A stretch of DNA of 26,403 nucleotides from positions 1 through 26,403 of the IMG/VR virus record IMGVR_UViG_3300032218_000526; one strand, given 5' to 3'. Shown here piece after piece: positions 360-24,649 of the stretch. The position numbers and the translations under genes were made by a program. This stretch comes from a virus (Duplodnaviria; Caudoviricetes). Positions within the stretch are counted from its first letter, which is position 1. The number at the start of each line of letters is the position of its first letter. Under the pieces are notes generated by a model. That model saw only the letters and a list, made by a program, of their open reading frames with translations. It searched no databases and was not told the origin of the DNA.

Positions 360-3300
360 ATGGCTGAAGCAAATTACGGCGACGTATACAATCTGTACAT
401 GAACAATTTGGGTCGCGCACCAAGCGATGCCGATGTTGCCAATTGGGTTGGTGTGGACTACGGGTCACTTGCTAATTCCTTGGCAAACGAACCAGAGGTT
501 CAACAAAACAATCAACCGTTCTGGACGCAACCCGGCGCGTCGGATCAGCCTGCTTTTACCCCAGCCCCCGCTGCAAATTCGTGGCAACAAACAATTAACG
601 ACATTTACCAGCAAGAACTTGGTCGTCAAGCTGACCCAAGCGGGATGGACACGTTTACTAATTTCCTCAACCAAGGTATGACGGGTGAGCAGTTGCGTGA
701 AGCGCTTAGGTCTAGCGCAGAAGGTCAATCGCATGGATCGACGTCTTCACCTTCTTCTGGTGCAATCAATACTAACGCAGCAAATTACGGTGATGTGTAT
801 AACCTATGGATTCATAACTTAGGTCGCCCGCCAAGTGATTCGGATATAGCCAACTGGGTCGGTAAAGATTATTCTTCAGTAGCACAAGCACTAGCTAATG
901 AGCCAGAGGTGCGGCAGAACCAATCGTTCTGGAGTCAAGCAAAAGGACAGCCTTCCGGCGCTCAGGCAACCCCTGCGGCTCAAGATTTGTATTCTATTGT
1001 TGATGGGCAGTTAATGCTAGGCAATCAAGCGCAGTACCAAGTCGTTCCCATTCAAGACGACAGCGGTTATGTTTCTGGGTATAAAAACGCAGAAACTGGT
1101 GAATACGTTGACTTAAAAAAACTGAATAAAGGCATTACTGGATACGACAAAGACATTGAAGATTTATACAAAAACTTATTAGGTCGTGCGCCAGATGTAA
1201 GCGAGGTGGTTGCTTATAACAATAGACTAAAAAGCGGCGAGATTGACTTAAACGATGTTATTCAAGGATTTACAACGTCCAAAGAATATCTAGACAAGCA
1301 GATGCCGTTCCTTGACCCGAACGCTGACGTCAACACTAAATTTGAGCAAGGTGTGCGTGGGTTTGATGCAAAAGGATTGACCCGTGGTGGTGCATACGAA
1401 GGTTTGCCTACTCAATATTACGACCCCCAAACGGGTAAGTTAGCTGCGTGGTTTGGTACATCTGGAGATTTGACCGGCACAGATGCGTATACTTGGCACA
1501 CGGCAGCAGAAGCTAAATTGCCCGATGCACAACTCCGTCTTGCTAAAGAATCAGAACGTGATGTAGGCAAAGATTGGCGCACGCTTGGGACTAAAGCAGC
1601 AGGTATGATTGCCGCAGCTTACGCACCGCAACTTATGGCGTATATGGCTCCTGCGCTATCAACCGGCAGTCAGTTAGCTGATATGGCAATTCAAAGCGCC
1701 ATCATGCAAGGTGGGAAATCTGCTCTATCTGGCGGCGGTATAGAGGACATTATTAAAGCAGCGGGAATTGGGGCAGCTACCAGTGCCGCGGGTAATGCGG
1801 CAAGTGATTACATAGGCGATGCGTTATCATCTGGTTTAACGGACGCCCAAGCTAATGCCATGATGGGCGACTATACCAATAGCGCAAATTACAATGATTA
1901 CATTGACATAAGAGGCTCCGGTGATGGCGGGGGTGGAGCCGATAGCGGGGAAGGTGGAGACGTTACATTTTCCAATACCAAAGCCAAAAATTCTTTGGGC
2001 ATTGAAGCTGCGCCACAAGAAACAATGGATGCAATTGAGCTATTAAAAAAGGCAAATCCTGATTTTGAAAACTATCAATTAGTACAAGGCAGCAATACGC
2101 CTGCCTTACCCCCTGCGCAAAACCCGTTGTACGGCACACCTGCGATGCCGTTACAGCAAGAGCAATTGTCAGAACTCACCATCCCTACAGCAGAAAATTA
2201 CGACATTCCCATGTTGGATGTTTCCAACGGCACACCCGAAACAATTTTTCCAGATTCAATGTTAGACACGGCGGGCGCACCAGAACAAGCCTTAGCGGAT
2301 CAGATAGTCAACAACCCCGATATGCCACTTAGCGACGTATTGTCCAATGCGGACATTATCTTTTTACTTAAAAGCGGCACGTCTGTTGCCACGATTGCAA
2401 GTGTTATTGGTGCAATCGGCGGCGGTAGTGTAGATAGCGGTACGGGTAATGGCGTGGGTAGTGGTTCAAACTCAGGCAACGGCACAGGCTCTGGCGGTGG
2501 TACGGGTTCTGGTTCGGGCGGTGGTGGAACGGGTAGCGGGTCAGGTTCTGGGAGTGGTAGCGGGTCAGGTGGCGGGTCAGGTTCTGGGAGTGGTAGCGGG
2601 TCAGGTTCTGGGAGTGGTAGCGGCTCTGGTAGCGGGTCAGCCGGATCGGGTGATGGCACAGATGACGAAGAAGAAACAGATCAAACCAAAAAGAAAAAGA
2701 AACAAACACAACAACAAGCGGCAGCACAAGCGGCTATTGAAGCTATTTCAGCTAGAACCCCACCGGGCGCACAGATTGACTATCTATACGACATTGGTGG
2801 CGAGAGCATTTTTGCCCCGATGCGCCAACAACGGCCTAGACAAGATTGGGCTTATGAACCCAACGACCGATTTGCACAGGGTGGCATGGTTGCGTTTGAC
2901 GAGGGCGGTGATGTCGCAGAAACCAAACCCTACGATGCCACGATACGTGATAAGTACGCACAGGGTCTACAAGAAATCATTGAGGGGCTTGGTGCAGAGA
3001 AAGGTTATGCCCGTGGGGTGACGCGCTCTATTACAGGCGGTGAGGGTAGCAAGATGCCGCTAGGGTTAGGTGTGTCAGACTTTGTGCCGTTCCTAGGTAC
3101 GGGTATGCAAACACAAGAAGCCATGCGTAGTGGTGAGGCAGCTATTGATTCTGCTAAACGCGGTGAGTATGGTCGTGCTGCAATTGAAGGTGGTCTCGGT
3201 TTGCTTGGGTTAATTCCCGGATTGGGCGGCACAGCACGTGTTTTAAATTCTAAGCTAGTGCAAAACATGGGGCGTGCGGGTGAAAAATACGCCGAACGTG

Positions 3301-6081: not shown

Positions 6082-7704
6082 ATGTTCGGTATTGACCAAC
6101 AAGTTCAGCAAACGGCAGATGCGTACCGTGGCAAGCCTCAGATGCTTCAGCAAAAATACGCACAGAACCAACAGCTTATTGACTTGTTGGCGTTGCAAAA
6201 GCTCAAGTCCGATAAGGAAGAAGCCTCACGTCAAATGGCGTTATCTATGGGTGGTCAAGGCACGCCACCGACCATTGCCGATCAGCGCGAATCGCAAGTC
6301 TTAGATATGACTAAGAAAGAGGTCATCGACGAGCAAGCCGGTGTCATGCAGAACAAGATGAAGCAGATGCAGGATGCACAGCGTAAAGTCTTGCAATCCG
6401 CCGGTGCGCCACCGATGCCCGGTCAAAGCACTCCACAACCTCAACAACCCCCGTCGGCAGGGCTGGCAGGTATCCCTGCGCCTAATATGCAAGGCATGGC
6501 AGGTGGTGGCATTGTTGCTTTTGAAGGTGGTGGTTCTACTGACAAAGAAAAAGAGCAGCGAGAAAAGGATCGTGCAGCAGCAACAAATACTATTGAACAG
6601 TTAATAGCAGCGGGTAAAGACGTTCTTTCCGCGCCGGTACGTGGCATTGCGGGCGCAGCCGAATCCGTTATTACTCGTCCGTTACGGGCAGCGGGCGTAC
6701 CACTTCCTTACTTACCTGAATCGTTTTACGGCGGGGATCGTGGAAGCCTAACCCCGTACGCAGATAAACTGGCAAGAGAAAATGCAGCAAAAGAAAACAC
6801 GGCAAGAATAGAATCTCGCGGCGTTGACCCAACAGACGCTAGTGAATTTTTAAGCACTCTTAAAACAGTTGCACCTACAGCAGAAACACCACCCGCACCA
6901 CGAGCAGCACCACAAGGCACGGGCGGCGGCACACCAATGGGCAATGCCCCCGGAACCGTTGGATTCGGTATTCAATCACTGATTGGTACTAAAACACCTG
7001 ACGAAGCAGCGAGAGAAAACGAAGCTCGTGCAGCGGCAGCGGCTAACTACACCCCTGAAGAACGTGCAGCTAAAGAGCGGATGATCCAAGAGCGCTCGGC
7101 GGCAGACAGAGAAGCTGCGTTTATTAACGGGTTACTAGGCATGTCAGGTCGTACCACTAATGCCGGTGCTATTGCTGCCGGTGGCGCTGCTGCACAAAAT
7201 ACGCGCAACCAAGCCCTTGCTGCACGCCACAAAGCCGAAGGCGAACTCATTGATATCGGTCCTGCGTCACGTATGGCGGGTACTAAAGCCGGTGAAGCTC
7301 GGTTTAAAGATACGGTACTTGGTATGTCCCAAGGTGTGGATGCTGCGGTTAAACAAGCAGCAAACGCTACTGCGGCGGCAAGTAATACGTTACGTCAAAA
7401 AGAATTAGATTTTAATCACGCTATGGAGCGTATAAGAGATTTCCAAAGAATACAAGAAAAAGGATTGGTTGATTTGGACAAAAATTATACCGTTGCAAAA
7501 TCTAAGTTGGGTGTTTTACCGGGTACAAAAATAACTCCTGAAATGCAACGTGAGCTAGATATATTAGATACTCAATATGCGTTGGGAAGAGAACGTTTAC
7601 AGAAAACCCCCGCAGAAATTAACGTATTGCGGCAAAGAATAGGCATGGGTTCGTATGATGGATATAGCATAGTAGGTGTTCAACCCGCCGCCCCTAAACC
7701 ATAG
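6082..7704 (+). CDS. Probable internal virion/ejection protein (helical, Ala/Gln-rich)
   Basis: 540-aa ORF with AAGGA RBS. Contains the MAGGGIVAFEGGG motif and coiled-coil-like stretches. Confidence 0.7.
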   Translation: MFGIDQQVQQTADAYRGKPQMLQQKYAQNQQLIDLLALQKLKSDKEEASRQMALSMGGQGTPPTIADQRESQVLDMTKKEVIDEQAGVMQNKMKQMQDAQRKVLQSAGAPPMPGQSTPQPQQPPSAGLAGIPAPNMQGMAGGGIVAFEGGGSTDKEKEQREKDRAAATNTIEQLIAAGKDVLSAPVRGIAGAAESVITRPLRAAGVPLPYLPESFYGGDRGSLTPYADKLARENAAKENTARIESRGVDPTDASEFLSTLKTVAPTAETPPAPRAAPQGTGGGTPMGNAPGTVGFGIQSLIGTKTPDEAARENEARAAAAANYTPEERAAKERMIQERSAADREAAFINGLLGMSGRTTNAGAIAAGGAAAQNTRNQALAARHKAEGELIDIGPASRMAGTKAGEARFKDTVLGMSQGVDAAVKQAANATAAASNTLRQKELDFNHAMERIRDFQRIQEKGLVDLDKNYTVAKSKLGVLPGTKITPEMQRELDILDTQYALGRERLQKTPAEINVLRQRIGMGSYDGYSIVGVQPAAPKP

Positions 7705-7717
7705 CAACGGACGCATT

Positions 7718-10700
7718 ATGCCAATTTATTCAGTTCAAGCTCCTGATGGCAACATATACGACGTTAGCGGTCCTGAAGGAGCATCTCAGGCAGACTTGTT
7801 TGCGGCTACTGAACATTTAGTTCAACAAGCACGGGCTAATCAATTACAAGCAAAATTAGCGGAGCTACGTTCTGCGCCTATCCGCCCTGCGGAGGTCAGT
7901 GGTTTTGGTGCGGCTAAAGCTGCGGCTTGGCAAAACTTGCAAGCTGACCTCGCTGCGGTAGCCGGTAAGACAGGCATCATGAGTGAGGCTGATGCCGAAA
8001 AAACCATTGCCGAAAAGAAGAAAGAAGCTGCGCGAGTTTTTACTCCGACAGAAAACTGGTCTGATGCACCGTGGACTAAATTCAAAGAGCTAGTGGGTGG
8101 CACGTTACCTTATACGGTAGCTCCTTTAGCTGCGGGTGCTGCGGCTGCGGCGTTACCCGTTGTGGGTGTGGGCGGTGCAACTGCCGGATTGATCGGTACG
8201 GGTCTTGCAGGTTTAGCGTCTGCCACGCAGTTCACCGGATCGAACCTATCTGCACAAATGGAAGGTGATGGCGGGGATAAAAAATCTCTTGCCCAAACAG
8301 AACTTGCTCCTGCCATTGCAGGTGCGTTACCCCAAGCGGCGCTCGACATAGTGTCGTTTAAGATGATGCCTATCATTGGGCGTGCGTTTAAATCTATCGG
8401 TAAAGAACTTACAGAGGAACAACTCAAGCAAGTTGCCCAGCGCGGCTTGTTAAACAACATGGGTCGCAGTGGTCTGAAGACCGGAAGCGTTGAAAGCTTG
8501 ACCGAGACTGGGCAGCAGCTTATTGAGCGTCTGCAAGCAGGGTTTAGTATTACCGACGAAAAAGCCCGTGCAGAATATTTAGAAAGTGCAATCGGCGGTG
8601 GTGTATTAGGATTCCCGCTTGGTGCGTTAGGCGGTATCGGTGCGCGTGGTCGTGCAAGAAACAAGTTATCCGAGATCGAAGCCGGACGCAAACCACCTGA
8701 ACAAGTAGCGCCACCACAACTAACAGGGCAGGGGGAACTGTTCCCCGAACTCGCGGGTATTCAAGGTCCTGTCGCACCTCAAGGGGTCGAACCCCCAGAA
8801 TTAGCCTCTACTAGCCCTGAATCGTTGCCTTTAGACTTTGGTGAAAAACGGCAAGCAGAACTAGAGCAAACTTTTAATTCGCAAGAACCTGACTTGTTGG
8901 GCGATATCGTACCTGCGCGTAACGCTGAACCAGAACTTACTCCGTTAGAAGTACGTGCTAAAGAGTTAACACAAGAATTTATTGACAAGGGTGTACCACC
9001 GAAAGCAGCAGCGTTTGCTGCGTATCAACAAGCGCGTGATGAGCAGCGCGACGATACCCTCGCGTCAATGCAAAACGGTGAGATGTCTGATCCCCGCCAA
9101 AACGAGTTGCAGTTTGCCCCGCGAGGACAACTATCATTATTTAATGATGAGCAAGCGCCAACGCCAACCCGCGAAGAAGGACTCCAACGCGGTGTAGGTG
9201 AACAGCCTGAAGCCGAAGCTCCTGCACAACCCCAAGCAATCATCACTGCTCAAGCGTTAGACGTTCTGGGTATTCCTAAGAGCGCACCTGCTTACAAGTT
9301 ATCACTTGGTAAAGACCTTTCTGACCCGGTGCAACGGCTTGGCGTAAGTAATGCGCTGCGTAGCCTTGCGGCAAACCCGAATACAAAACCCAAAGTACGT
9401 ACGAACATCCAAAACGTGTTGCAACAATCCCCGTTCGTGCAAGTACAGGGTGAGTTGTTTGGTCCAAACGGTGGTGTACTTAGAACTAGAGAACCCACGC
9501 TTGCACGAATGATAACCAAGGAAGCTAAGAAAGCCGAGGAAGCTAAAAATGCTAACACGCCTAAGAGTACAGGAACTACCGCTGAGTCAGCCGCTGAGTC
9601 CGGAGCAAGTGAGTCGCCTGTGGACGTGGGTGGTGCGAGTGTCGAACCAACACCTGCAAGTACAGAAAGTACCACGGGAGTTTCGGAATCTAAAGAACAA
9701 GGACTGGCAGGTACTGGTCGAAGAGCTAAACCTGACAATGATGGAAAAGGAAAGGCACAGTCTTCAGTAGCCGAAGAAGAAATCTCGCAAGAAGAGCAAG
9801 ATGCGTTACAAGCCGAACTAGATGCCGAGCTTACCGGTGCGCCTGTGGAAGCTGAAGCCAAAGCCGAGGGAATTGACTGGGACTTTTTCAATAAAGAAAG
9901 TGCAAGAATAAAAAGAAAAGTAGCTAACGCTGAACGAGTTGAGCGCCGAGCTGAAATGGGTCCTGAATCAAAAGCCGCAAAAGAAAAATTAGCAAAGGCT
10001 TTAGAAGAAGGACGTAATTTCTACGCGAAGTGGAACCCTATAATTAACGCTGCGGCGGATAAAACCATTGCTAAAAGCGAAGCAAAAGCAGCTAAAGCCG
10101 AGTCTGAAACCGATAGTGAGGCTAAAGATAAAGCCTTAAACGAGAAGGTGCGTGAGTGGGATAAAGCTAACCGCACTATGCGTAATGAATCGTGGCAAGA
10201 CGGAGCGTTGCAAGCCAACCCAGCATTTGAAGCTGTGAAAGCGCAAGGGTCGTCTGTCCCTGCACATGGTATGTCTAAAGTTAGTACGCTTGGTCAAGGC
10301 GTTAAAGATTTAATTGCAATGGTAAACGGTGGGATTCGTCCGGGGCTATATTTTGAAGCCCTTACACGTCCTGACAAAGCAGCAGGCGCTGCGTCTGCTT
10401 CAGGTACTGCTGGTGGTGTAGCGTATCGTGATGGCCCATTTATCATTACGTTCCGTGAAGGAGTTACTAGCCCGACTTCAGCAGATATAACTGGCGTACT
10501 GGTTAACCCATCTATTGCAGAAATTATTCCCGCGCTTCGTGCTGTGCTGCCAAACGTTCGCATCGAGTCGTATCAAGACGTGCAAACACTTTTAGGTGAG
10601 CCAAATACTAAGGCAGAACCAAAAGCCAAACCTGCGCCTAAAGCTAAGAAAGAAACTAAGGCAGAACCTAAAGCCGAGCCTGAAACAAAGGCTGAAGAAG

Positions 10701-13700
10701 TTGCGCCTGAAGTGAACCCCGAGTGGGAAGAGCTTGCCGCAAAAGAAACCAACGAGTATCAAAAATGGTTTGCAACAAACGTTCAAAAGTACAAGATCGA
10801 CAAAGACGATATTGGCAAATCGCGTGACCCTGATCGTCGTAAGGTAGGCAGCTTACTTAGAGGTCCGGCGAAAGCAAAGAAAACAACTACAAGTGATCTT
10901 TTTGCTCGTAATTCTGCACATGTGTACTTCTCCAAGATGCCGCGTCTTGTGGATAACCTGCGTAACATTGCTTTCGATATTGCGGCTAACACCCCACGGT
11001 TCAAAGAAGGATTACAAAACGTTCCTGCACCTGAAGCTAAGTTCTTTAAGGGCATGAGCAAAACGGCAGCAGCGCATGCACAACGATGGGTGCAAGCAAA
11101 CTTAAGCACCGAAGCTAACGCTAAACTTGATGAAATGGTTATAGCGTACAAGGAAGAACAAATAAAGTTTGCGGATAAAAACTTTACAGACAAGTTGTTA
11201 GGGCATGATAAAACTTCCGCAGAATACGAACAAAAACACGAGGATGAAGTATTACTTCCCGCTGCCCGTGCGCTGCTTAACGTAAAGAAACGTACAAAGA
11301 AACCCACACCTTTGCACAAGACCGAGCCTGAAGTAAAAAACATAGCGTGGAAAGAAGCAAATGCGGAAGATATTATTGACAATATTGTTGACGATATATT
11401 GGGTGGTAGGGGATATAGAGAACTTCCACAAGATGCAGTAAGTCGTTTAGGTGTACCACTTCACCCTGCTGTCCGGGCCATGTTGGAAGCCGGTAACTTG
11501 CAGGGTGCGCTTAATGCGTTAGCAGGGCAAACCAATGGTATCGTCGGACGTATCGTGCGGCTTCTCGCAAGTGTCGTGGGTGGTACGCGAGTTGAGGTAG
11601 TGAACAACCTAGTTGGTGAAGATGGTAAACCCGCTGCCGGTCTGTTTGATCCTGCAACAAACACAATCCGCCTCGATTCAAAGACAGGGCTTAACAACCA
11701 CACGCTGATCCACGAGATGACGCACGGCGCGTTGTCGCACATCTTGGATAACGCAAACCATCCGGTAACTAGGCAGCTTACCAAAATATTCAATTCGGTA
11801 AAGCCTATGCTTGATACCGCCTACGGCGCTCAGAGCTTACAAGAGTTTGTTGCCGAGGCTTGGGGTAACGTCGAGTTCCGCGAGAAGTTAAGCGCCCTGC
11901 ACCCTGACGGTACGCCAATTTCAGCTTGGCAACGATTTACCAATACGGTTAAGAACTTCATGCGTTCTATGATTGGTATGCAGCACAAGAGTATTGAGTC
12001 TGCGTATGACCAAACAGATCGGTTAATGGAGTCAATCATTTCCCCTGCACCGGGGATGCGTACTGCGGGGTCGCTGTATTTGGCAGCGTCTAACCCTAGC
12101 GTAGCAAATGCGTTTTTTAATTCGATGGGTCAGGCGTACAGCAACATCCCGTATTTCAACACGGACACAAAAGACGCGTTCCGTAACGTCTTTACCGCCC
12201 GCATACCAGACGCGATTCGACGCTTCCTGTTAAGTGCTTTACCTGCGAACGCTTTATCAGACGTTGCCGAAAGCATCATCCCTATGGCTAAACAGTTTGA
12301 TAAACTCGTGCATCTGAAATCAGGTCGTGAGGGTAGGCTCTACAGCGAGGTCGAACCCACAATTAACCGTGTGCGTGACTGGGCTAAGAAACAGTCGGCT
12401 GACACCATGCGTAACTTCAATGACGTGGTGTACGAGAGTACCGTAAACCGTGTTGATCCGTCTAAGTTACGCAGTGCGTATGTGGACAAGTACGGCAACA
12501 GCCTGACCGACACAAGTGGCAACAAGCTTGCAGACGCGTGGGATGCCTTGGAACCCAAGTGGCGGGAATTGCAGAGGAACGGTGGCGCACAAGTCTACGG
12601 CGAGATGCGTGACACCTATAAGAAACTATACGATAAGATTGGGGACATTCTAAGAACCCGTATTGATGACGAGTTTGGTAAGTCAAAGGAAGCCACTAAA
12701 GCCTACGGTATGCTCAAGAAGTTGTTCGATGAGCGTGGCATCATTGAACCGTACTTCCCGTTAACTCGTCGCGGTGATTACTGGCTGTCATACAACATGG
12801 CGGTCAACAACCCTGACGGTACGCCTAAGAGTAACGAGCAGTACATCGAAGCATTCGAGACTAAGATTGCGCGGGATCGAGCGATTGCTGATTTGCAAGC
12901 AATGGCAGATGCGGATAAGAACCTTAAGTTCAGTGACGTAAATGAGTTTCGTAAGGGTGAGAAGATTAACTACAGCAACGCACCGTCATCGTCCTTTATG
13001 GGTCGAGTGCTAGATGTGCTTGATGCCAACAACGTTGGTGCAGAATCTCGCGAAGCCATCATGGAGTTGTATCTTAACGCCTTGCCTGAGAACTCATTTG
13101 CGCAATCGTTTAGAAACCGTAAAGACACACTTGGCTTTGACAAAGACGCTGTCCGTGCGTTTTCTAACAAGACCTACGGCATCACGCGCCAACTTGCAAA
13201 CGTTGAGTACGGCGCTAAGTTTCAGCAGCTTGGTAGTGACATATCTAAGTACGTTCGCAACTTAGTGGGTAACAAAGAACAAGCCCAAATGTATGAGCGC
13301 GAGTTTGCAAAACGCATTAAATTTGTGTTGCACCCGGAAGTATCAGAGTGGTCTAAACTCAGTACCTCGATAGGCTTTAATGCGTTGCTTGGATTTAACT
13401 TGTCTTCTGCGATTGTTAACTTAACGCAATTGCCGTTAGTCACTCTGCCTTATCTTGGCGGCAAGTACGGTTACTCCGAAACCATGAAAGCAATGGGGGA
13501 GGCGACACGTCTGTTTACAGCTAGTGGGTTTAAAGACAAAGCACGGGTAGACATTTTAGGTGTGAAGTCCGATATTGTTGCCGGACCATCTATGGCTAAC
13601 TACGACTGGTCTGATCCTTCTAAGCTGCCACCTGAGATTCGTAAGTACGCAGCCCTTGTAGAAAAAGCGTTGGATTACGGTCAACTTAATCGTTCACAGA

Positions 13701-14929
13701 TATTTGACATCCTTGCAGTGGACAAGACCGATAGCGTTGGCAATAAGGTAAACGCAATGTCGGGGTTTATGTTCCACCACGGTGAGCGCATGAACAGGGA
13801 AGTTACCCTTGCCACGGCGTACGACCTAGAATTGCAGCGGATGAAGTCAAACCCGACGAAAGAAGAAGCTGTGATGACCACTGCACAAAAGCAAGATCGT
13901 GCAGCAGAGAACGCTATTAACATCACCGAATTGACCAACGGTAGCGCCTCGGCTTCAGCAGCGCCTAGTCTGGCGCAAGGCAACATCGGTAGAATTTTGT
14001 TTATGTTCAAACGCTACGGCGTGTCGATGTATTACATGTTGTTCAAAACTGCGATGGAAACGGTCAAGGGTCAGGATGCCGCAACGCGGGGTGCTGCATT
14101 GCGTCAAGTTGCAGGTATCTACGGATCGTCTGCTTTACTTGCGGGTCTGAAGGGTGTGCCAATGTTTGGTATTGCCGCGATGATCTATAACATGATTAAA
14201 GAAGACGACGATGATGACTTTGAAACGCAAGTCCGTAAATGGACTAACGAGACCGTGTACAGCGGGGCGCTAAATGGTCTTACAAATCTTGAGTTTGCAT
14301 CTCGCATTGGTTTGAGTGACTTAATTTTTCGTGACCAAAAAGCGCCGGAAACCCAAACCGCGTTGCTCACATTGCTTGAAACCTTGGGCGGTCCGGTCTA
14401 CGGGGTAGGTAAAAAGTTTGAACGTGGTATCACGCTAATGAACGAGGGTCATATCGAGCGCGGCGTTGAACAAATGCTGCCTTCCGCTATTGGCAATATG
14501 CTTAAAGGTGTTCGATTCGGTACTGAGGGTGCAACGACCTTGCGTGGCGATCCGATTACGGGCGACATTAGCGCATGGAATGCAGGGGCGCAGATGCTTG
14601 GGTTTGCTCCGGCGGATTACATCGCACAGCAAGAGATCAATGCCAACGCTAAAGGCTTTGAGCGTACAGTTATTAAACAGCAAAAGTCGTTACTGCTTAA
14701 TTACTACATGGCTGCGCGTCAAGGTGACACCGAAGCGGTTCAAGATATTACGCAAAAGATGGGGGAGTTCAACAAGAAGCACCCCACCATTGCTATATCC
14801 GGCGATACGCTACGCAGGTCAATGGAAGGGCATGCCAAAGCGTCTGCACAAAAGTATCACGGTTTGACGTTTAACAAAAAGCTCTTGCCTGAGATTATGG
14901 CGGGCATACGGGAATACGACGCGGAATAA
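7718..14929 (+). CDS. Giant polyvalent internal virion/ejection protein with zincin metallopeptidase and PLxRFG-like C-terminal region
   Basis: The ORF track starts at 7676, but ATG 7718 (MPIYSVQAPDG) after the upstream stop at 7704 is more plausible. Gly/Ala-rich hydrophobic N-terminal segments; HEMTH at 11711-11725 followed by QEFVAEA; PYFPLTRRGDY at 12749-12781. Last gene of the structural arm. Confidence 0.8.
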   Translation: MPIYSVQAPDGNIYDVSGPEGASQADLFAATEHLVQQARANQLQAKLAELRSAPIRPAEVSGFGAAKAAAWQNLQADLAAVAGKTGIMSEADAEKTIAEKKKEAARVFTPTENWSDAPWTKFKELVGGTLPYTVAPLAAGAAAAALPVVGVGGATAGLIGTGLAGLASATQFTGSNLSAQMEGDGGDKKSLAQTELAPAIAGALPQAALDIVSFKMMPIIGRAFKSIGKELTEEQLKQVAQRGLLNNMGRSGLKTGSVESLTETGQQLIERLQAGFSITDEKARAEYLESAIGGGVLGFPLGALGGIGARGRARNKLSEIEAGRKPPEQVAPPQLTGQGELFPELAGIQGPVAPQGVEPPELASTSPESLPLDFGEKRQAELEQTFNSQEPDLLGDIVPARNAEPELTPLEVRAKELTQEFIDKGVPPKAAAFAAYQQARDEQRDDTLASMQNGEMSDPRQNELQFAPRGQLSLFNDEQAPTPTREEGLQRGVGEQPEAEAPAQPQAIITAQALDVLGIPKSAPAYKLSLGKDLSDPVQRLGVSNALRSLAANPNTKPKVRTNIQNVLQQSPFVQVQGELFGPNGGVLRTREPTLARMITKEAKKAEEAKNANTPKSTGTTAESAAESGASESPVDVGGASVEPTPASTESTTGVSESKEQGLAGTGRRAKPDNDGKGKAQSSVAEEEISQEEQDALQAELDAELTGAPVEAEAKAEGIDWDFFNKESARIKRKVANAERVERRAEMGPESKAAKEKLAKALEEGRNFYAKWNPIINAAADKTIAKSEAKAAKAESETDSEAKDKALNEKVREWDKANRTMRNESWQDGALQANPAFEAVKAQGSSVPAHGMSKVSTLGQGVKDLIAMVNGGIRPGLYFEALTRPDKAAGAASASGTAGGVAYRDGPFIITFREGVTSPTSADITGVLVNPSIAEIIPALRAVLPNVRIESYQDVQTLLGEPNTKAEPKAKPAPKAKKETKAEPKAEPETKAEEVAPEVNPEWEELAAKETNEYQKWFATNVQKYKIDKDDIGKSRDPDRRKVGSLLRGPAKAKKTTTSDLFARNSAHVYFSKMPRLVDNLRNIAFDIAANTPRFKEGLQNVPAPEAKFFKGMSKTAAAHAQRWVQANLSTEANAKLDEMVIAYKEEQIKFADKNFTDKLLGHDKTSAEYEQKHEDEVLLPAARALLNVKKRTKKPTPLHKTEPEVKNIAWKEANAEDIIDNIVDDILGGRGYRELPQDAVSRLGVPLHPAVRAMLEAGNLQGALNALAGQTNGIVGRIVRLLASVVGGTRVEVVNNLVGEDGKPAAGLFDPATNTIRLDSKTGLNNHTLIHEMTHGALSHILDNANHPVTRQLTKIFNSVKPMLDTAYGAQSLQEFVAEAWGNVEFREKLSALHPDGTPISAWQRFTNTVKNFMRSMIGMQHKSIESAYDQTDRLMESIISPAPGMRTAGSLYLAASNPSVANAFFNSMGQAYSNIPYFNTDTKDAFRNVFTARIPDAIRRFLLSALPANALSDVAESIIPMAKQFDKLVHLKSGREGRLYSEVEPTINRVRDWAKKQSADTMRNFNDVVYESTVNRVDPSKLRSAYVDKYGNSLTDTSGNKLADAWDALEPKWRELQRNGGAQVYGEMRDTYKKLYDKIGDILRTRIDDEFGKSKEATKAYGMLKKLFDERGIIEPYFPLTRRGDYWLSYNMAVNNPDGTPKSNEQYIEAFETKIARDRAIADLQAMADADKNLKFSDVNEFRKGEKINYSNAPSSSFMGRVLDVLDANNVGAESREAIMELYLNALPENSFAQSFRNRKDTLGFDKDAVRAFSNKTYGITRQLANVEYGAKFQQLGSDISKYVRNLVGNKEQAQMYEREFAKRIKFVLHPEVSEWSKLSTSIGFNALLGFNLSSAIVNLTQLPLVTLPYLGGKYGYSETMKAMGEATRLFTASGFKDKARVDILGVKSDIVAGPSMANYDWSDPSKLPPEIRKYAALVEKALDYGQLNRSQIFDILAVDKTDSVGNKVNAMSGFMFHHGERMNREVTLATAYDLELQRMKSNPTKEEAVMTTAQKQDRAAENAINITELTNGSASASAAPSLAQGNIGRILFMFKRYGVSMYYMLFKTAMETVKGQDAATRGAALRQVAGIYGSSALLAGLKGVPMFGIAAMIYNMIKEDDDDDFETQVRKWTNETVYSGALNGLTNLEFASRIGLSDLIFRDQKAPETQTALLTLLETLGGPVYGVGKKFERGITLMNEGHIERGVEQMLPSAIGNMLKGVRFGTEGATTLRGDPITGDISAWNAGAQMLGFAPADYIAQQEINANAKGFERTVIKQQKSLLLNYYMAARQGDTEAVQDITQKMGEFNKKHPTIAISGDTLRRSMEGHAKASAQKYHGLTFNKKLLPEIMAGIREYDAE
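9549..9770 (+). CDS. Candidate nested (overprinted) gene in the +1 frame of the giant gene, 73 aa
   Basis: GAGGA at 9536-9540, 8 nt before ATG 9549; TAG at 9768-9770. The product looks ordered and helical while the host frame here is a low-complexity linker. Confidence 0.45.
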   Translation: MLTRLRVQELPLSQPLSPEQVSRLWTWVVRVSNQHLQVQKVPREFRNLKNKDWQVLVEELNLTMMEKERHSLQ

Positions 14930-14956
14930 AAAAACCCCCGAGGGAGAGTCGGGGGT
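14928..14956 (-). terminator. Rho-independent terminator for - strand transcripts at the convergent junction
   Basis: - strand reads ACCCCCGA-CTCTCCC-TCGGGGGT then TTTTTT. 8-bp stem 14934-14941/14949-14956; the A run on + is 14928-14934. Confidence 0.8.
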
Positions 14957-15001
14957 CAAGGTACTACTAAACCAAGGAGTTTGATGGTGGAGAGCCATCA
15001 G
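14928..15001 (-). ncRNA. Candidate anti-Shine-Dalgarno small RNA (two hairpins with CUCUCC loops and a CUCCUUGGUUU linker)
   Basis: Extended -10 TG-A-TACTAT at 15015-15007; hairpin UGAUGG-CUCUCCA-CCAUCA; linker complementary to the RBSs at 24652-24662 and 19810-19819; ends in the terminator hairpin. Confidence 0.45.
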
Positions 15002-15006
15002 GAATA

Positions 15007-15015
15007 ATAGTATCA
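15007..15015 (-). promoter_or_regulatory. Possible extended -10 promoter (TGnTACTAT) for the candidate sRNA
   Basis: TGATACTAT on the - strand, overlapping the stop codon of the 85-aa ORF. No convincing -35. Confidence 0.35.
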
Positions 15016-15270
15016 CGCTATCCGCCAAAAGCGTACCCCCCACTTGCCATTTTCTATACGCACACGGCGTTCAACCTGAAAATTCTTTTTGTGCGCAATC
15101 TCATAAAATTGCGCGACTAACTCTGTTACGTTAACAGCCGGTACAAAAACCGAAGCTCCGGTAACAAAGTTTTCCCAGTCAATAACAATCCGTATGTTAT
15201 CGGGCGACAAGTCATCGTGCTTTATCCGTTCGCTAGTCGGAACGAACGGGCGTATACGTTGTCGTTTCAT
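15013..15270 (-). CDS. Small hypothetical phage protein downstream of primase-helicase
   Basis: 85-aa ORF overlapping the primase 3' end. IDW...SVFVP...GVRFWR pattern suggests a compact folded domain. Confidence 0.7.
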   Translation of the reverse strand: MKRQRIRPFVPTSERIKHDDLSPDNIRIVIDWENFVTGASVFVPAVNVTELVAQFYEIAHKKNFQVERRVRIENGKWGVRFWRIA

Positions 15271-19128: not shown

Positions 19129-19407
19129 CTATAGGTCTTCATCAGGGTTAAAGTTTAATTCCAACTGCACTGGCTCTTTCATTGCAACTTCAACTGGTAC
19201 TTCAACTGGTACTTCTGGTAATTCGTCATCGGCTCGGGCAGAGAATGCTTGTACCATAGCCGACAGGTCGAACCTGTAAGTAAGCCCGATTTTTAGGTAT
19301 GTGTCTTTAGGGATGAACCCTTGCCTAATCCACGAACGTATCGTTGATACTGATACTGTGAAATGCTTGGCGCATTCCTCAATTGGTACAAATGGTCCTT
19401 GCGACAT
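19129..19407 (-). CDS. Excisionase/MerR-like HTH DNA-binding protein
   Basis: IEECAKHFTVSVSTIRSWIRQGFIP...KIGLTYRF fits the HTH_17 pattern. AAGGAG RBS; start overlaps the upstream stop. Confidence 0.8.
   Translation of the reverse strand: MSQGPFVPIEECAKHFTVSVSTIRSWIRQGFIPKDTYLKIGLTYRFDLSAMVQAFSARADDELPEVPVEVPVEVAMKEPVQLELNFNPDEDL
19187..19219. repeat. 12-bp tandem repeat (ACTTCAACTGGT x2 plus partial) encoding PEVPVEVPVEV
   Basis: Read directly from the sequence. Confidence 0.7.
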
Positions 19408-19802
19408 TATTTTCTCCTTACCGTTACTGAGTATTCACTGTCCACGTTGATCCCCGGGGGCAGTAAATCGGGGTGTTCTGCCAAAAACTGTTTGATGTTG
19501 CCTTGGTGTAATCGCTTCTCAAGCAACTCAGGTACTTGGTGTTCGACGATGAACTTGCCCATCGACTCCCAATCGTTCGTCCAATAACTCTGCTTCAGGG
19601 TACGAAAGAATACCCCTTCTGCGGTGCGGACGCTTTCGACGTTGTGTTCCTTGCAATGCTCAAGCAACGCACCCTTGACCTTAGCCATCTTGTCCTTGAG
19701 TGCTTCCTCCTGCTCTTTGTATGCGCTTGCCATCTCTGCTTGCTTCTCACGCATCTTGATGTACACCTTAACTAGCTTTTCTACTGGGACTTCGTTTGCC
19801 AT
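19407..19802 (-). CDS. Hypothetical phage replication-module protein (N-terminal coiled coil)
   Basis: 131 aa with AAGGAG RBS. Coiled coil followed by SVRTAEG...W...LPPGINV. Confidence 0.75.
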   Translation of the reverse strand: MANEVPVEKLVKVYIKMREKQAEMASAYKEQEEALKDKMAKVKGALLEHCKEHNVESVRTAEGVFFRTLKQSYWTNDWESMGKFIVEHQVPELLEKRLHQGNIKQFLAEHPDLLPPGINVDSEYSVTVRRK

Positions 19803-22786: not shown

Positions 22787-24649
22787 TTAACAATCTCCGT
22801 ACGATTTACCAAAGCCTGACTCACAGTTAACAGGTAGCCCCGCTGCCCAGTCAGGTGTCCAACGCATACATTCTTCAACGTATGCCACTGCTTCTACTGC
22901 TTGATCCTTATGCACAACGCAAGCCACTGCATCATGCACAGTCAACACAACCTTGTATCGCTTGGCTATACGCAACATCTGTTCGGCAATGATGCACCGT
23001 GCAATACCCTGACACACGTTCTCTACGACCTTGCCCCCATATATGCGGGTGTATCCTCGGCGTGTCTTGTAGCTATACTCAACACCCTTTGCTCCTTGTT
23101 CAAAGCGCAAGTCATCGTAACGCATCAACAACCCTGACGGTAACTTGATGGCGTTCTTCTCAACAGTCAGTACGTCGGGCCGACCTAGCTGTGACACATC
23201 ACCCCTTGACATGTTAGCGATTACATTCTGAGCTTGCTGCCAGAGCATAACAATGTCTTGGTTAGTGCGTCTGTAGATGTCAATGATACGCCGCGCTTCT
23301 TCGATGTCAATCGTAAATCCAAACGTCTTAAGCTGCATCTGAAACTTAGGCGCACCCATGCCGTACCCTGCACCAAGAATCGTTGTCTTACCGACGAACC
23401 GCTCAGGGTCAGTTATATTCTCCGGTGGTTTACTGTATATCTGTGACGCCATAAGTTTGTATGGGTCATGCTTAAAATCTTTCTTGTTTACGCCCGCCAA
23501 TATCTCTGCGTTGTTTTTCTTAAACGTATCCACCAAGTCAGCCTGCCCCGCAAGCCATGCCAATACCCGTGCTTCAATCTGCGCTGAGTCAGCGTCGATA
23601 ATAATGTGGTCTTCAGGCGCAATGATCGCCCGCTTCAATGTGTTCGCATTCACCCCACGGGTTGGCAGGTTCTGCAAGTTAATCTTGTCATCTCCGCCGA
23701 ATCGACCTGTGTGCGCTGCGTAATACCGAATCGGTACAGGTAGTAGTCCACGGTTGGCGATACCCATAAAGCGTTGAGTGCGTGTCTCTTCAAGTGTGGA
23801 CTTCGTACCAAGCCGTGCCGCAACAAGGGTCTGCACCCGCAAGTCAGGATGCTCGGCAAGTGCTTTAAATTCCTCGTCGCTCTTAGCAAATGCCAAGGTC
23901 TGTTTACCTGTCGTGGGGCTGACCTTCATCGGCGGTTCAACACCGAACTCACGCAACAAATCGGCAAACTTCAGGTTAGACAGCAGCTCTTCTTTCGTTG
24001 CTTCGATGCGGGATAACAACCTAAACTTCTCATCCTTAGTCTCACGCAAGTGTTGCTCAAGTAATGTCAGGTCAAGCTCAAGCACGGGTTCAATGAACAT
24101 GCGTAACGTCAGGTCGATGATGCGTAGCTCCTGCTTGGGGAAGCCCTTTGCCATCAGGTAAAACAAACTATGCGTTAACTCCACATCATTGATGCAATAG
24201 TCCCCATAGCGTGAAAGCTGTTCGACGCTGAAATCGGTACGGCGCATACCCTTGGCTTGGATTACTTCATTGCCTTTGACACCCACGCCGTAACGTTCAG
24301 CCATAGCTTTGAGTGAGCCACCCACTTCAATACCATGCAAGGCACGACCCATACACAGAGTATCAGCCCACACACGAGGCTTGATACCAAAACGCCAACT
24401 AAGGATAGCACCATCAAACATGGTGTTGTGGCATACCACCATTGCGTCTGCCCAGTTGAACGTATCGAGCCACGTTTTAATCTGTTCATGTGTGCCACTC
24501 GCCCACTCGGTTTGGTTGTTGTTAACTTTAATTGCTAGACCAATCACCTCAAACTTGTCATCACGTACGTAGGCTTCAGTTGTAATCTTGCTCAAACTAA
24601 AGTCTTGGTCATAGTACGTTTCCATATCAACTACGATTAAGTCCATCAC
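22787..24649 (-). CDS. polA: Family A DNA polymerase with 3'-5' exonuclease (Leu762 type)
   Basis: Exo motifs DMETY, HNTMFD, YCIND; TGRFGG...NLQN; motif A DSAQIEAR; motif B RFVGKTTILGAGYG; motif C TVHD. AAGGAG RBS; start GTG 24649 or ATG 24646. Confidence 0.92.
   Translation of the reverse strand: MMDLIVVDMETYYDQDFSLSKITTEAYVRDDKFEVIGLAIKVNNNQTEWASGTHEQIKTWLDTFNWADAMVVCHNTMFDGAILSWRFGIKPRVWADTLCMGRALHGIEVGGSLKAMAERYGVGVKGNEVIQAKGMRRTDFSVEQLSRYGDYCINDVELTHSLFYLMAKGFPKQELRIIDLTLRMFIEPVLELDLTLLEQHLRETKDEKFRLLSRIEATKEELLSNLKFADLLREFGVEPPMKVSPTTGKQTLAFAKSDEEFKALAEHPDLRVQTLVAARLGTKSTLEETRTQRFMGIANRGLLPVPIRYYAAHTGRFGGDDKINLQNLPTRGVNANTLKRAIIAPEDHIIIDADSAQIEARVLAWLAGQADLVDTFKKNNAEILAGVNKKDFKHDPYKLMASQIYSKPPENITDPERFVGKTTILGAGYGMGAPKFQMQLKTFGFTIDIEEARRIIDIYRRTNQDIVMLWQQAQNVIANMSRGDVSQLGRPDVLTVEKNAIKLPSGLLMRYDDLRFEQGAKGVEYSYKTRRGYTRIYGGKVVENVCQGIARCIIAEQMLRIAKRYKVVLTVHDAVACVVHKDQAVEAVAYVEECMRWTPDWAAGLPVNCESGFGKSYGDC

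Follow-up and report, generated by a model that had tools for sequence, protein, structure and literature searches.

Does a giant phage gene hold a second gene in another of its reading frames and, if so, what might the product of that gene do? This question is raised by a stretch of 26,403 nucleotides (nt) from a tailed phage (Duplodnaviria; Caudoviricetes; IMG/VR record IMGVR_UViG_3300032218_000526), referred to here as the window, which is the whole of a 26.4-kb virus record that is about 43% complete. Its giant gene (7718..14929, + strand) contains, in the +1 frame, an open reading frame (ORF) of 73 codons at 9549..9770 (+ strand), which we call the nested gene. Comparison with homologues indicates that the nested gene is almost certainly real, and that standard annotation misses it. 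It belongs to a family with at least 368 protein clusters and no Pfam or PHROG model, whose members, wherever their context was read, always lie in a giant polyvalent gene.

The nested frame in the window

The nested gene runs from an ATG at 9549 to a TAG ending at 9770, and a Shine-Dalgarno (SD)-like GAGGA (9536..9540, + strand) stands 8 nt before the ATG, exactly the geometry described in an earlier note on this DNA. The nested product contains three Trp, whereas the giant frame has no aromatic residue over the same bases. The earlier note had taken this asymmetry as a sign that the nested frame carries the constraint, but composition alone proves nothing: the +1 frame stays open, given the linker residues, with P = 0.22, and all three Trp sit on the sole N-T-G/G codon junctions of the giant frame. 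Synonymous shuffling produced an ATG-started ORF of at least 73 codons with an SD of at least 4 nt in the +1 or +2 frame in 17% of cases for the giant gene alone and in 52% when ten genes were considered. Moreover, T at codon position 2 is scarcer in the stretch with the overlap than elsewhere in the giant gene, and this in itself suppresses +1 stops. From the window alone, the nested ORF is not beyond chance and its status is undecided; the proof is supplied by the homologues.

Conservation of the nested family

The search for homologues yielded 156 loci (the window and some re-fetched loci included), all of them in the +1 frame inside giant polyvalent genes and corresponding to 123 distinct proteins, mostly of 56-77 amino acids (aa). 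Two relatives of the 73-aa product are 95% and 59% identical to it; the latter has AGGAGGTG before its ATG and an identical stop position, with a giant frame that is only 39% identical. In 48 loci fetched by the C-terminal domain of the host protein, a selection blind to the nested ORF, an iterated profile matched 35 (in-sample expect value, E, ≤1.6e-16; next match 0.49), every one of them offset by +1 from the giant ORF, and the remaining 13 start at a contig edge with a host of at most 1292 residues. A held-out set of 48 loci (71 further loci minus 23 re-fetches) gave 29 matches at E ≤ 1.4e-12 and one at 4.6e-3 with an identical layout. The 18 held-out loci without a match all begin at a contig edge; two of them (1242 and 1338 residues) could reach the site in the shortest relatives and were counted as untested, not as negative, and L121 starts downstream of the nested site. 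The nested ORF was thus present in 35 of 35 covered loci and in 30 of 30 held-out loci not cut by the contig upstream of the match.

The cluster count given above refers to 50% identity, and cluster details come from the best 150 of the 368, one of which is a false match to a repeat protein. A scan with a distant subgroup gave 288 relatives, of which the 80 read in context were all nested in the +1 frame (80/80); the still more distant L224, L226 and L227 were nested in that frame too, and L225 was a false match. Free-standing copies were also sought through two distant representatives called as genes on contigs of 26 and 32 kb, and their relatives proved to be nested as well. None of the 156 loci that hold a member has it as a free-standing gene, the contexts read being those of 80 of the 288 relatives and of a minority of the 368 clusters. 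One member lies on a 55-kb contig of a Candidatus Methylopumilus metagenome-assembled genome, which points weakly to proteobacterial hosts, although that contig may be a mis-binned phage.

Selection and start signals

Per-frame selection was compared in 12 disjoint close pairs, and the ratio of nonsynonymous to synonymous differences per site (pN/pS) was 0.36 in the nested frame against 1.53 in the giant frame; for the window and its nearest relative the values were 0.15 and 4.56, respectively. Across 36 distinct sequences, identity was higher in the nested than in the giant frame in 584 of the 630 pairs, and the best-conserved nucleotide was position 2 of the nested codon, that is, the wobble position of the giant frame. 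Synonymous differences (pS) in the giant frame fell to 0.099 in the overlap, compared to 0.469 in the upstream and 0.567 in the downstream flank. If the nested protein were recoded, an average of 2.84 stops would arise in the giant frame (probability of none: median 0.037, window 0.02) and, judged by these comparisons, the giant frame over the overlap is constrained only to stay open. The apparent disordered linker of the giant protein (giant frame, 9548..9769, + strand), which is Gly/Ala/Pro/Thr/Ser-rich, poorly conserved and stop-free, is accounted for as a shadow of the nested frame, and the small gene may be the older frame of the two.

An SD of at least 6 nt was found at the expected distance from the start in 25 of 36 loci versus 12 of the 2700 control windows taken in the same frame; loci with cut starts and duplicates, four in all, were excluded from the count. 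In most relatives this signal reads AAGGAG, TAAGGAG or AGGAGG, and 67 of 80 distant homologues have an SD of at least 5 nt. Collectively, homologues, start signals, pN/pS and synonymous suppression strongly support the hidden small protein, with constraint on the nested frame, that the earlier note had proposed. The late mRNA that encodes the giant protein would also serve for translation of the nested gene.

Features of the predicted product

The family consensus consists of L-[ST]-x-x-Q-[LV]-E-L-A-[LF], a variable loop, P-x-E-L-x-H-L-x-x-x-[DE]-W, a Leu-rich helix 2, E-K and S-x-[LVI]-[HQ], with P42, L48 and W53 invariant across 34 aligned members. AlphaFold2 (mean predicted local distance difference test score of 67) predicted an amphipathic helix 1 at residues 18-33 (9600..9647, + strand; hydrophobic moment 1.6) and a helix 2 at residues 50-71 (9696..9761, + strand), after the P-x-E-L-x-H-L...[DE]W turn. 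The window protein ends in H-S-L-Q (9756..9767, + strand), the Q variant of the consensus tail. In the family, [LVI]H ends 77 of 114 members, compared to 0.9% at the 8703 further +1 stops of these genes; among the 149 representatives listed from the best 150 of the 368 clusters, 113 end in H and 146 have L, V or I before the last residue. The window protein has no Cys and a maximum 19-residue hydropathy of -0.04, no membrane segment was detected in the 123 members (none above 1.22 over the last 50 aa), and we predict a soluble protein of two helices.

In tailed phages, the known fully nested same-strand genes are mostly those of spanins. The o-spanin gene Rz1 of lambda, inside Rz, is a small +1 embedded phage gene overlooked by gene callers (PMC6139136). 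The nested family resembles Rz1 in being a small gene wholly within another phage gene in the +1 frame; however, its product has no lipobox or hydrophobic signal and, in the window, no Cys, and its host is a 2400-aa DarB-like/PLxRFG-type polyvalent protein, with a nearly unconstrained linker as host frame, instead of an i-spanin. An embedded o-spanin was therefore rejected, as there is neither a hydrophobic segment or membrane segment nor, in the window, the Cys of a lipobox.

Pfam and PHROG searches with 34 members gave nothing convincing (best PHROG E of 0.0019, two members; best Pfam E of 0.0078, one member), the best E in a PDB sequence search with the family was 0.047, and tblastn of member L028 in 50,697 cultured phage records found no match. 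Foldseek searches of viral structures with the low-confidence two-helix model retrieved no match at E ≤ 0.001, the best VIA-align Z score (6.2 at a root-mean-square deviation of 4.7) was within background, and one member gave no usable match in the ESM Atlas; none of these searches shows the fold to be new. The literature searched, with most subscription papers outside its reach, held no description of the family or its layout. The family is thus undescribed, and its setting and degron-like tail were not found in print, whereas the +1 embedded phage gene as a kind is known from Rz1.

The giant host protein

The giant gene encodes about 2403 aa from the ATG at 7718 (the ORF finder starts it at the GTG at 7676) and is the last gene in the + strand cluster. 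The C-terminal 720 residues of its product match phrog_10089, named DarB-like, with an E of 4.7e-77, and this C-terminus is 22-28% identical to PLxRFG/DarB-like proteins in 34 cultured phage records. A Pfam search of the giant protein gave no match, and no DNA methylase or helicase family was found. An HExxH motif (11711..11725, + strand) marks a metallopeptidase-like domain, so named by motif after PMC5512222 (Iyer et al. 2017) and without a Pfam match. The giant protein is, in this respect, like the polyvalent proteins of that article, a large phage protein with an HExxH domain; in the main text of PMC5512222 neither "overlap" nor "frameshift" occurs, and "nested" is used only of a hairpin. 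Gene order and relatives suggest that the giant protein is an ejected virion protein.

The N-terminal third of the giant protein holds a cluster of QxxLF/QxxMF motifs, including those at 8729-8743 and 9128-9142 (+ strand, giant frame) and QGELF at 9446..9460 (+ strand), the last of four giant-frame QxxLF motifs upstream of the nested gene. We take these QxxLF motifs to be sliding-clamp-binding-like. In 36 close hosts, 67 of the 68 QxxLF/QxxMF occurrences lie upstream of the nested stop.

Nested ORFs in cultured phages

Twelve loci of cultured phages with giant DarB-like genes were viewed for comparison. In eight of them (SopranoGao, Pavtok, Itty13, VvAW1, PBC5, Atu_ph08, Mwe-JY07 and POI1126) an unannotated, SD-led ORF with an ATG lies in the +1 frame of the giant gene; its product, family B, has about 105 aa and is weakly TnpV-like (L060:9246-9569; homologues in L063, L066, L067 and L069-L072; 21 records matched by tblastn). 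The giant gene of PBC5 is broken, and its annotated N-terminal part continues into the family B ORF. A family C, of 129-aa, SD-led +1 ORFs with similar N-terminal sequences, was found at L061:11220 (Skulduggery) and L064:8819 (Parlo). These ORFs share with the nested family the SD, the ATG, the +1 frame, a helical-looking product and a location in a giant-gene linker, but they are longer (105-135 aa) and family B has no His tail. Comparison of family B with the window family by hhalign gave a probability of 0.5% over 10 columns, and the window-family profile had no match below an E of 0.2 in three cultured loci. As these unrelated nested ORFs are absent from the annotations of the cultured phages viewed, the layout can be tested in the laboratory now.

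Parlo also has a 71-aa +1 ORF with a 4-nt SD inside its giant gene (L064:6770), which ends in I-L-H and may be a remote analogue of the nested family.

A Lon-engaging helper as the favoured reading

The sequence of the family tail resembles the C-terminal His degron of Lon substrates, since a C-terminal x-L/I-L/I/V-H is an autonomous Lon degron according to PMC11986505. The small Lon activator/regulator LarA likewise ends in a helix followed by a short tail with a terminal His (PMC10665427). Like the Lon His-degron proteins (SulA, Smg and Y2853) and LarA, the nested members are small and have a C-terminal helix and a short [LVI]-H tail; unlike them, a quarter to a third of the members, the window copy included, end in Q, and the family is phage-encoded and nested. 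DUF1150 (LarA) was not among the nine weak Pfam families matched by 34 members at E ≤ 0.1. As a phage precedent, lambda CIII is both a substrate and an inhibitor of FtsH (PMC1838920).

We infer that the nested product is recognised by Lon and has a protective role, and the mechanism as a whole, to which we assign a probability of about 0.4, is that of a short-lived Lon-engaging helper protecting the newly made giant protein. Ribosomes would initiate at the internal SD of the late transcript, so that a small soluble protein would be made alongside the giant protein. The tail of the small protein would engage host Lon and make it short-lived, and the protein could act as a protease decoy or as a transient, non-domain-specific chaperone, the giant virion protein being thereby spared until packaging. 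Retention of the family in giant genes despite the lack of any universal host domain agrees with a helper without domain specificity. If the tail does engage Lon, the family would offer a concrete clue to the means by which phages preserve their very large injected proteins inside the host.

Several observations weigh against this mechanism. [LVM]Q ends 36 of the 114 members, among them the window copy, and the best terminal degron residues are H, V and P in the available text of PMC11986505, where Q is unranked. The residue before [LVI]H is mostly P, S, Q or R and rarely L or I, unlike in the Yersinia motif, and similar tails end 3.9% of Yersinia ORFs in that same text. A degron would imply at most a short half-life, not a role as decoy or chaperone. 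Staying nested may reflect an inherited position instead of a need, and unrelated small genes use other giant-gene linkers. The GAGGA of the window is a match of only 4 nt to the anti-SD consensus, weak compared to the relatives, and among 52 complete loci the nested SD is stronger than that of the giant gene in just 27 (equal in 8, weaker in 17), so that a large molar excess of the small protein is not a rule.

Alternative explanations

The alternative that survives best, which we regard as possible but rather improbable, is that of a passenger, a real late gene with a job of its own (virion assembly, lysis timing or host takeover) in a tolerant linker, perhaps engulfed at the fusion of two flanking genes, the tail limiting nothing but its lifetime. 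The freedom of the giant frame here, unconstrained except to be stop-free, would suit such a gene. So would the free exchange of the surrounding host domains: in 65 complete distant hosts, hidden Markov models (HMMs), which were built on close-clade sequences and may overlook domains that have diverged, matched the peptidase-like and C-terminal domains in 60 and 56, respectively, and the N-terminal and upstream helical domains in 27 and 8. In addition, the linkers of cultured DarB-like genes hold non-homologous small genes, one of which is weakly like the free-standing TnpV family (Pfam E of 0.0035, below the cut-off). Against a passenger, no free-standing copy appeared in the 156 loci despite host divergence to 14-17% identity in the C-terminal domain, the contexts read being those of 80 of 288 relatives and of a minority of the 368 clusters.

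A broader reading, which we consider doubtful, concerns a large group of uncultured phages: the nested product would be a dedicated Lon regulator (decoy or adaptor, from the same mRNA) steering the fate of the giant protein, giant-protein linkers would serve as slots for several unrelated out-of-frame accessory genes, and the linker would be a by-product of the small gene.

Unlikely, in our view, is a dedicated partner of one domain of the giant protein, be it a peptidase inhibitor or a shield of the N-terminal hydrophobic segment or of the QxxLF motifs, in the way that P1 Ulx aids DarB. The predicted amphipathic helices and the invariant P, L and W suggest a binding surface, and in PMC9024508 Ulx, the product of a separate 17-kDa gene, is listed as aiding DarB localisation. 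In both cases a small accessory is encoded with a giant internal head protein, and the C-terminal domain of the host matches the DarB-like PHROG; nevertheless, Ulx is a separate gene and no PHROG or Pfam match connects the two. Lambda CIII and Ulx are, by the comparisons made here, analogies and not relatives.

None of the host domains tested is universal, which weakens the case for such a partner. The peptidase-like HMM has no match in 6 of 114 hosts and in 5 of the 65 complete distant hosts, although in one or two of these the domain may have diverged, and the role as chaperone or inhibitor of the enzymatic domains that the earlier note had suggested was not established. Four checked hosts without the C-terminal domain carry LPD38 instead, the giant proteins of relatives carry LPD38, LPD39 and ART-PolyVal, and the same nested family is kept across differing C-terminal modules (PLxRFG-like, LPD38) and N-termini. 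Because the small gene outlasts every tested host domain and was not seen as a free-standing copy, a non-domain-specific helper or a passenger is favoured over a dedicated enzyme inhibitor. As for the QxxLF motifs, 54 of 58 close hosts but just 2 of 56 distant hosts have them upstream of the nested gene, and clamp-motif shielding was rejected as a general role.

Distances between nested proteins in 51 close loci follow those of the host N-terminal domain (rho of 0.64) slightly better than those of the C-terminal domain (0.54); the correlation is, however, weak in the distant set (0.17-0.32) and nil when pooled, and linkage alone would yield it. Covariation between the two proteins in 114 pairs (effective number of sequences of 76) reached a maximum Z of 4.7, the same as in neighbour-swapped controls, the alignment being too shallow. 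Prediction of a complex of the small protein with giant-protein residues 1-598 scored 0.00, which is no answer and counts neither as support nor as contrary evidence.

A programmed +1 frameshift, with the nested frame as an alternative C-terminus on giant residues 1 to about 600-750, would account for the constant +1 offset at a similar place and has a counterpart in PBC5, where the annotated N-terminal part runs into the unrelated family B ORF; it is very improbable given the conserved SD and ATG/GTG at canonical spacing and a +1 stop 1-4 codons before the start in several members (L006, L018 and L022). That the nested frame is no gene, just a chance opening over a hydrophilic linker, agrees with the window taken alone (P = 0.17-0.22) and with the merely 1.24 +1 stops that such linkers average per 55 codons, but it is scarcely credible, since more than 120 distinct sequences together show a conserved protein motif, a conserved SD and stop position, selection specific to the nested frame and suppressed synonymous change.

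The upstream 9-nt sequence and the downstream element

The earlier note had also pointed to AACCAAGGA just upstream of the nested ORF, as a match to a candidate small RNA (sRNA). This sequence is indeed present at 9514..9522 (+ strand). An imperfect direct repeat of 18 nt (9518-9535 / 9536-9553) duplicates the SD region here, and the first of its copies overlaps AACCAAGGA. The 9-nt sequence occurs four times in the window versus 0.23 expected: two copies are the ribosome-binding site (RBS) regions of the early genes 22787-24649 and 19407-19802, and the one at 14970 falls within a conserved element that follows the giant gene. Near the nested start it was found in 1 of 114 paired loci, the window itself, and also in the 95%-identical L002/L005, outside that set. 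The copy at 9514 is not conserved, is probably incidental and does not count in favour of the nested gene.

The conserved element is non-coding (14928-15020, - strand) and comprises a hairpin, an anti-SD CUCCUU and an intrinsic terminator, with a fold z of -4.3; its core has GGAG in 92 of 107 loci and a TATYACA box in 49. Weak Rfam matches, below the gathering score, were obtained to Burkholderia anti-hemB and to a Betaproteobacteria toxic sRNA. Matches of at least 9 nt to the element were found in 16% of 146 early-gene RBSs versus 5.6% of 107 nested RBSs, with 2.8% across unrelated phages, so that the proposed link is not supported and sRNA control of the nested gene through AACCAAGGA was rejected, the match being explained by the shared SD sequence. 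Because of its matches to early-gene RBSs, the element may be an sRNA that shuts early genes off. No RNA holder is listed for positions 8800-10600 of the window.

Genomic setting and further open frames

On the minus strand of the window, Pfam and PHROG searches identified genes for a DNA polymerase A, an SNF2 helicase, a PD-(D/E)XK nuclease and a DUF927 primase-like protein. Downstream of the nested ORF, the frame of the giant gene is broken in L003/L006 (about 2760-2910) and in L049, by either an assembly error or a natural break.

Two other long +1 open stretches were observed in the giant gene of the window, at 14442-14867 (141 codons) and 13014-13265 (83 codons), with ATGs that have no SD. 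Over ten genes, alternative-frame ATG ORFs of at least 73 codons with an SD of at least 4 nt numbered three versus 0.67 expected, the further two, in other plus-strand genes, being 2449-3021 and an ORF in gene 6082-7704; ORF 2449-3021 overlies a Gly/Ser repeat.

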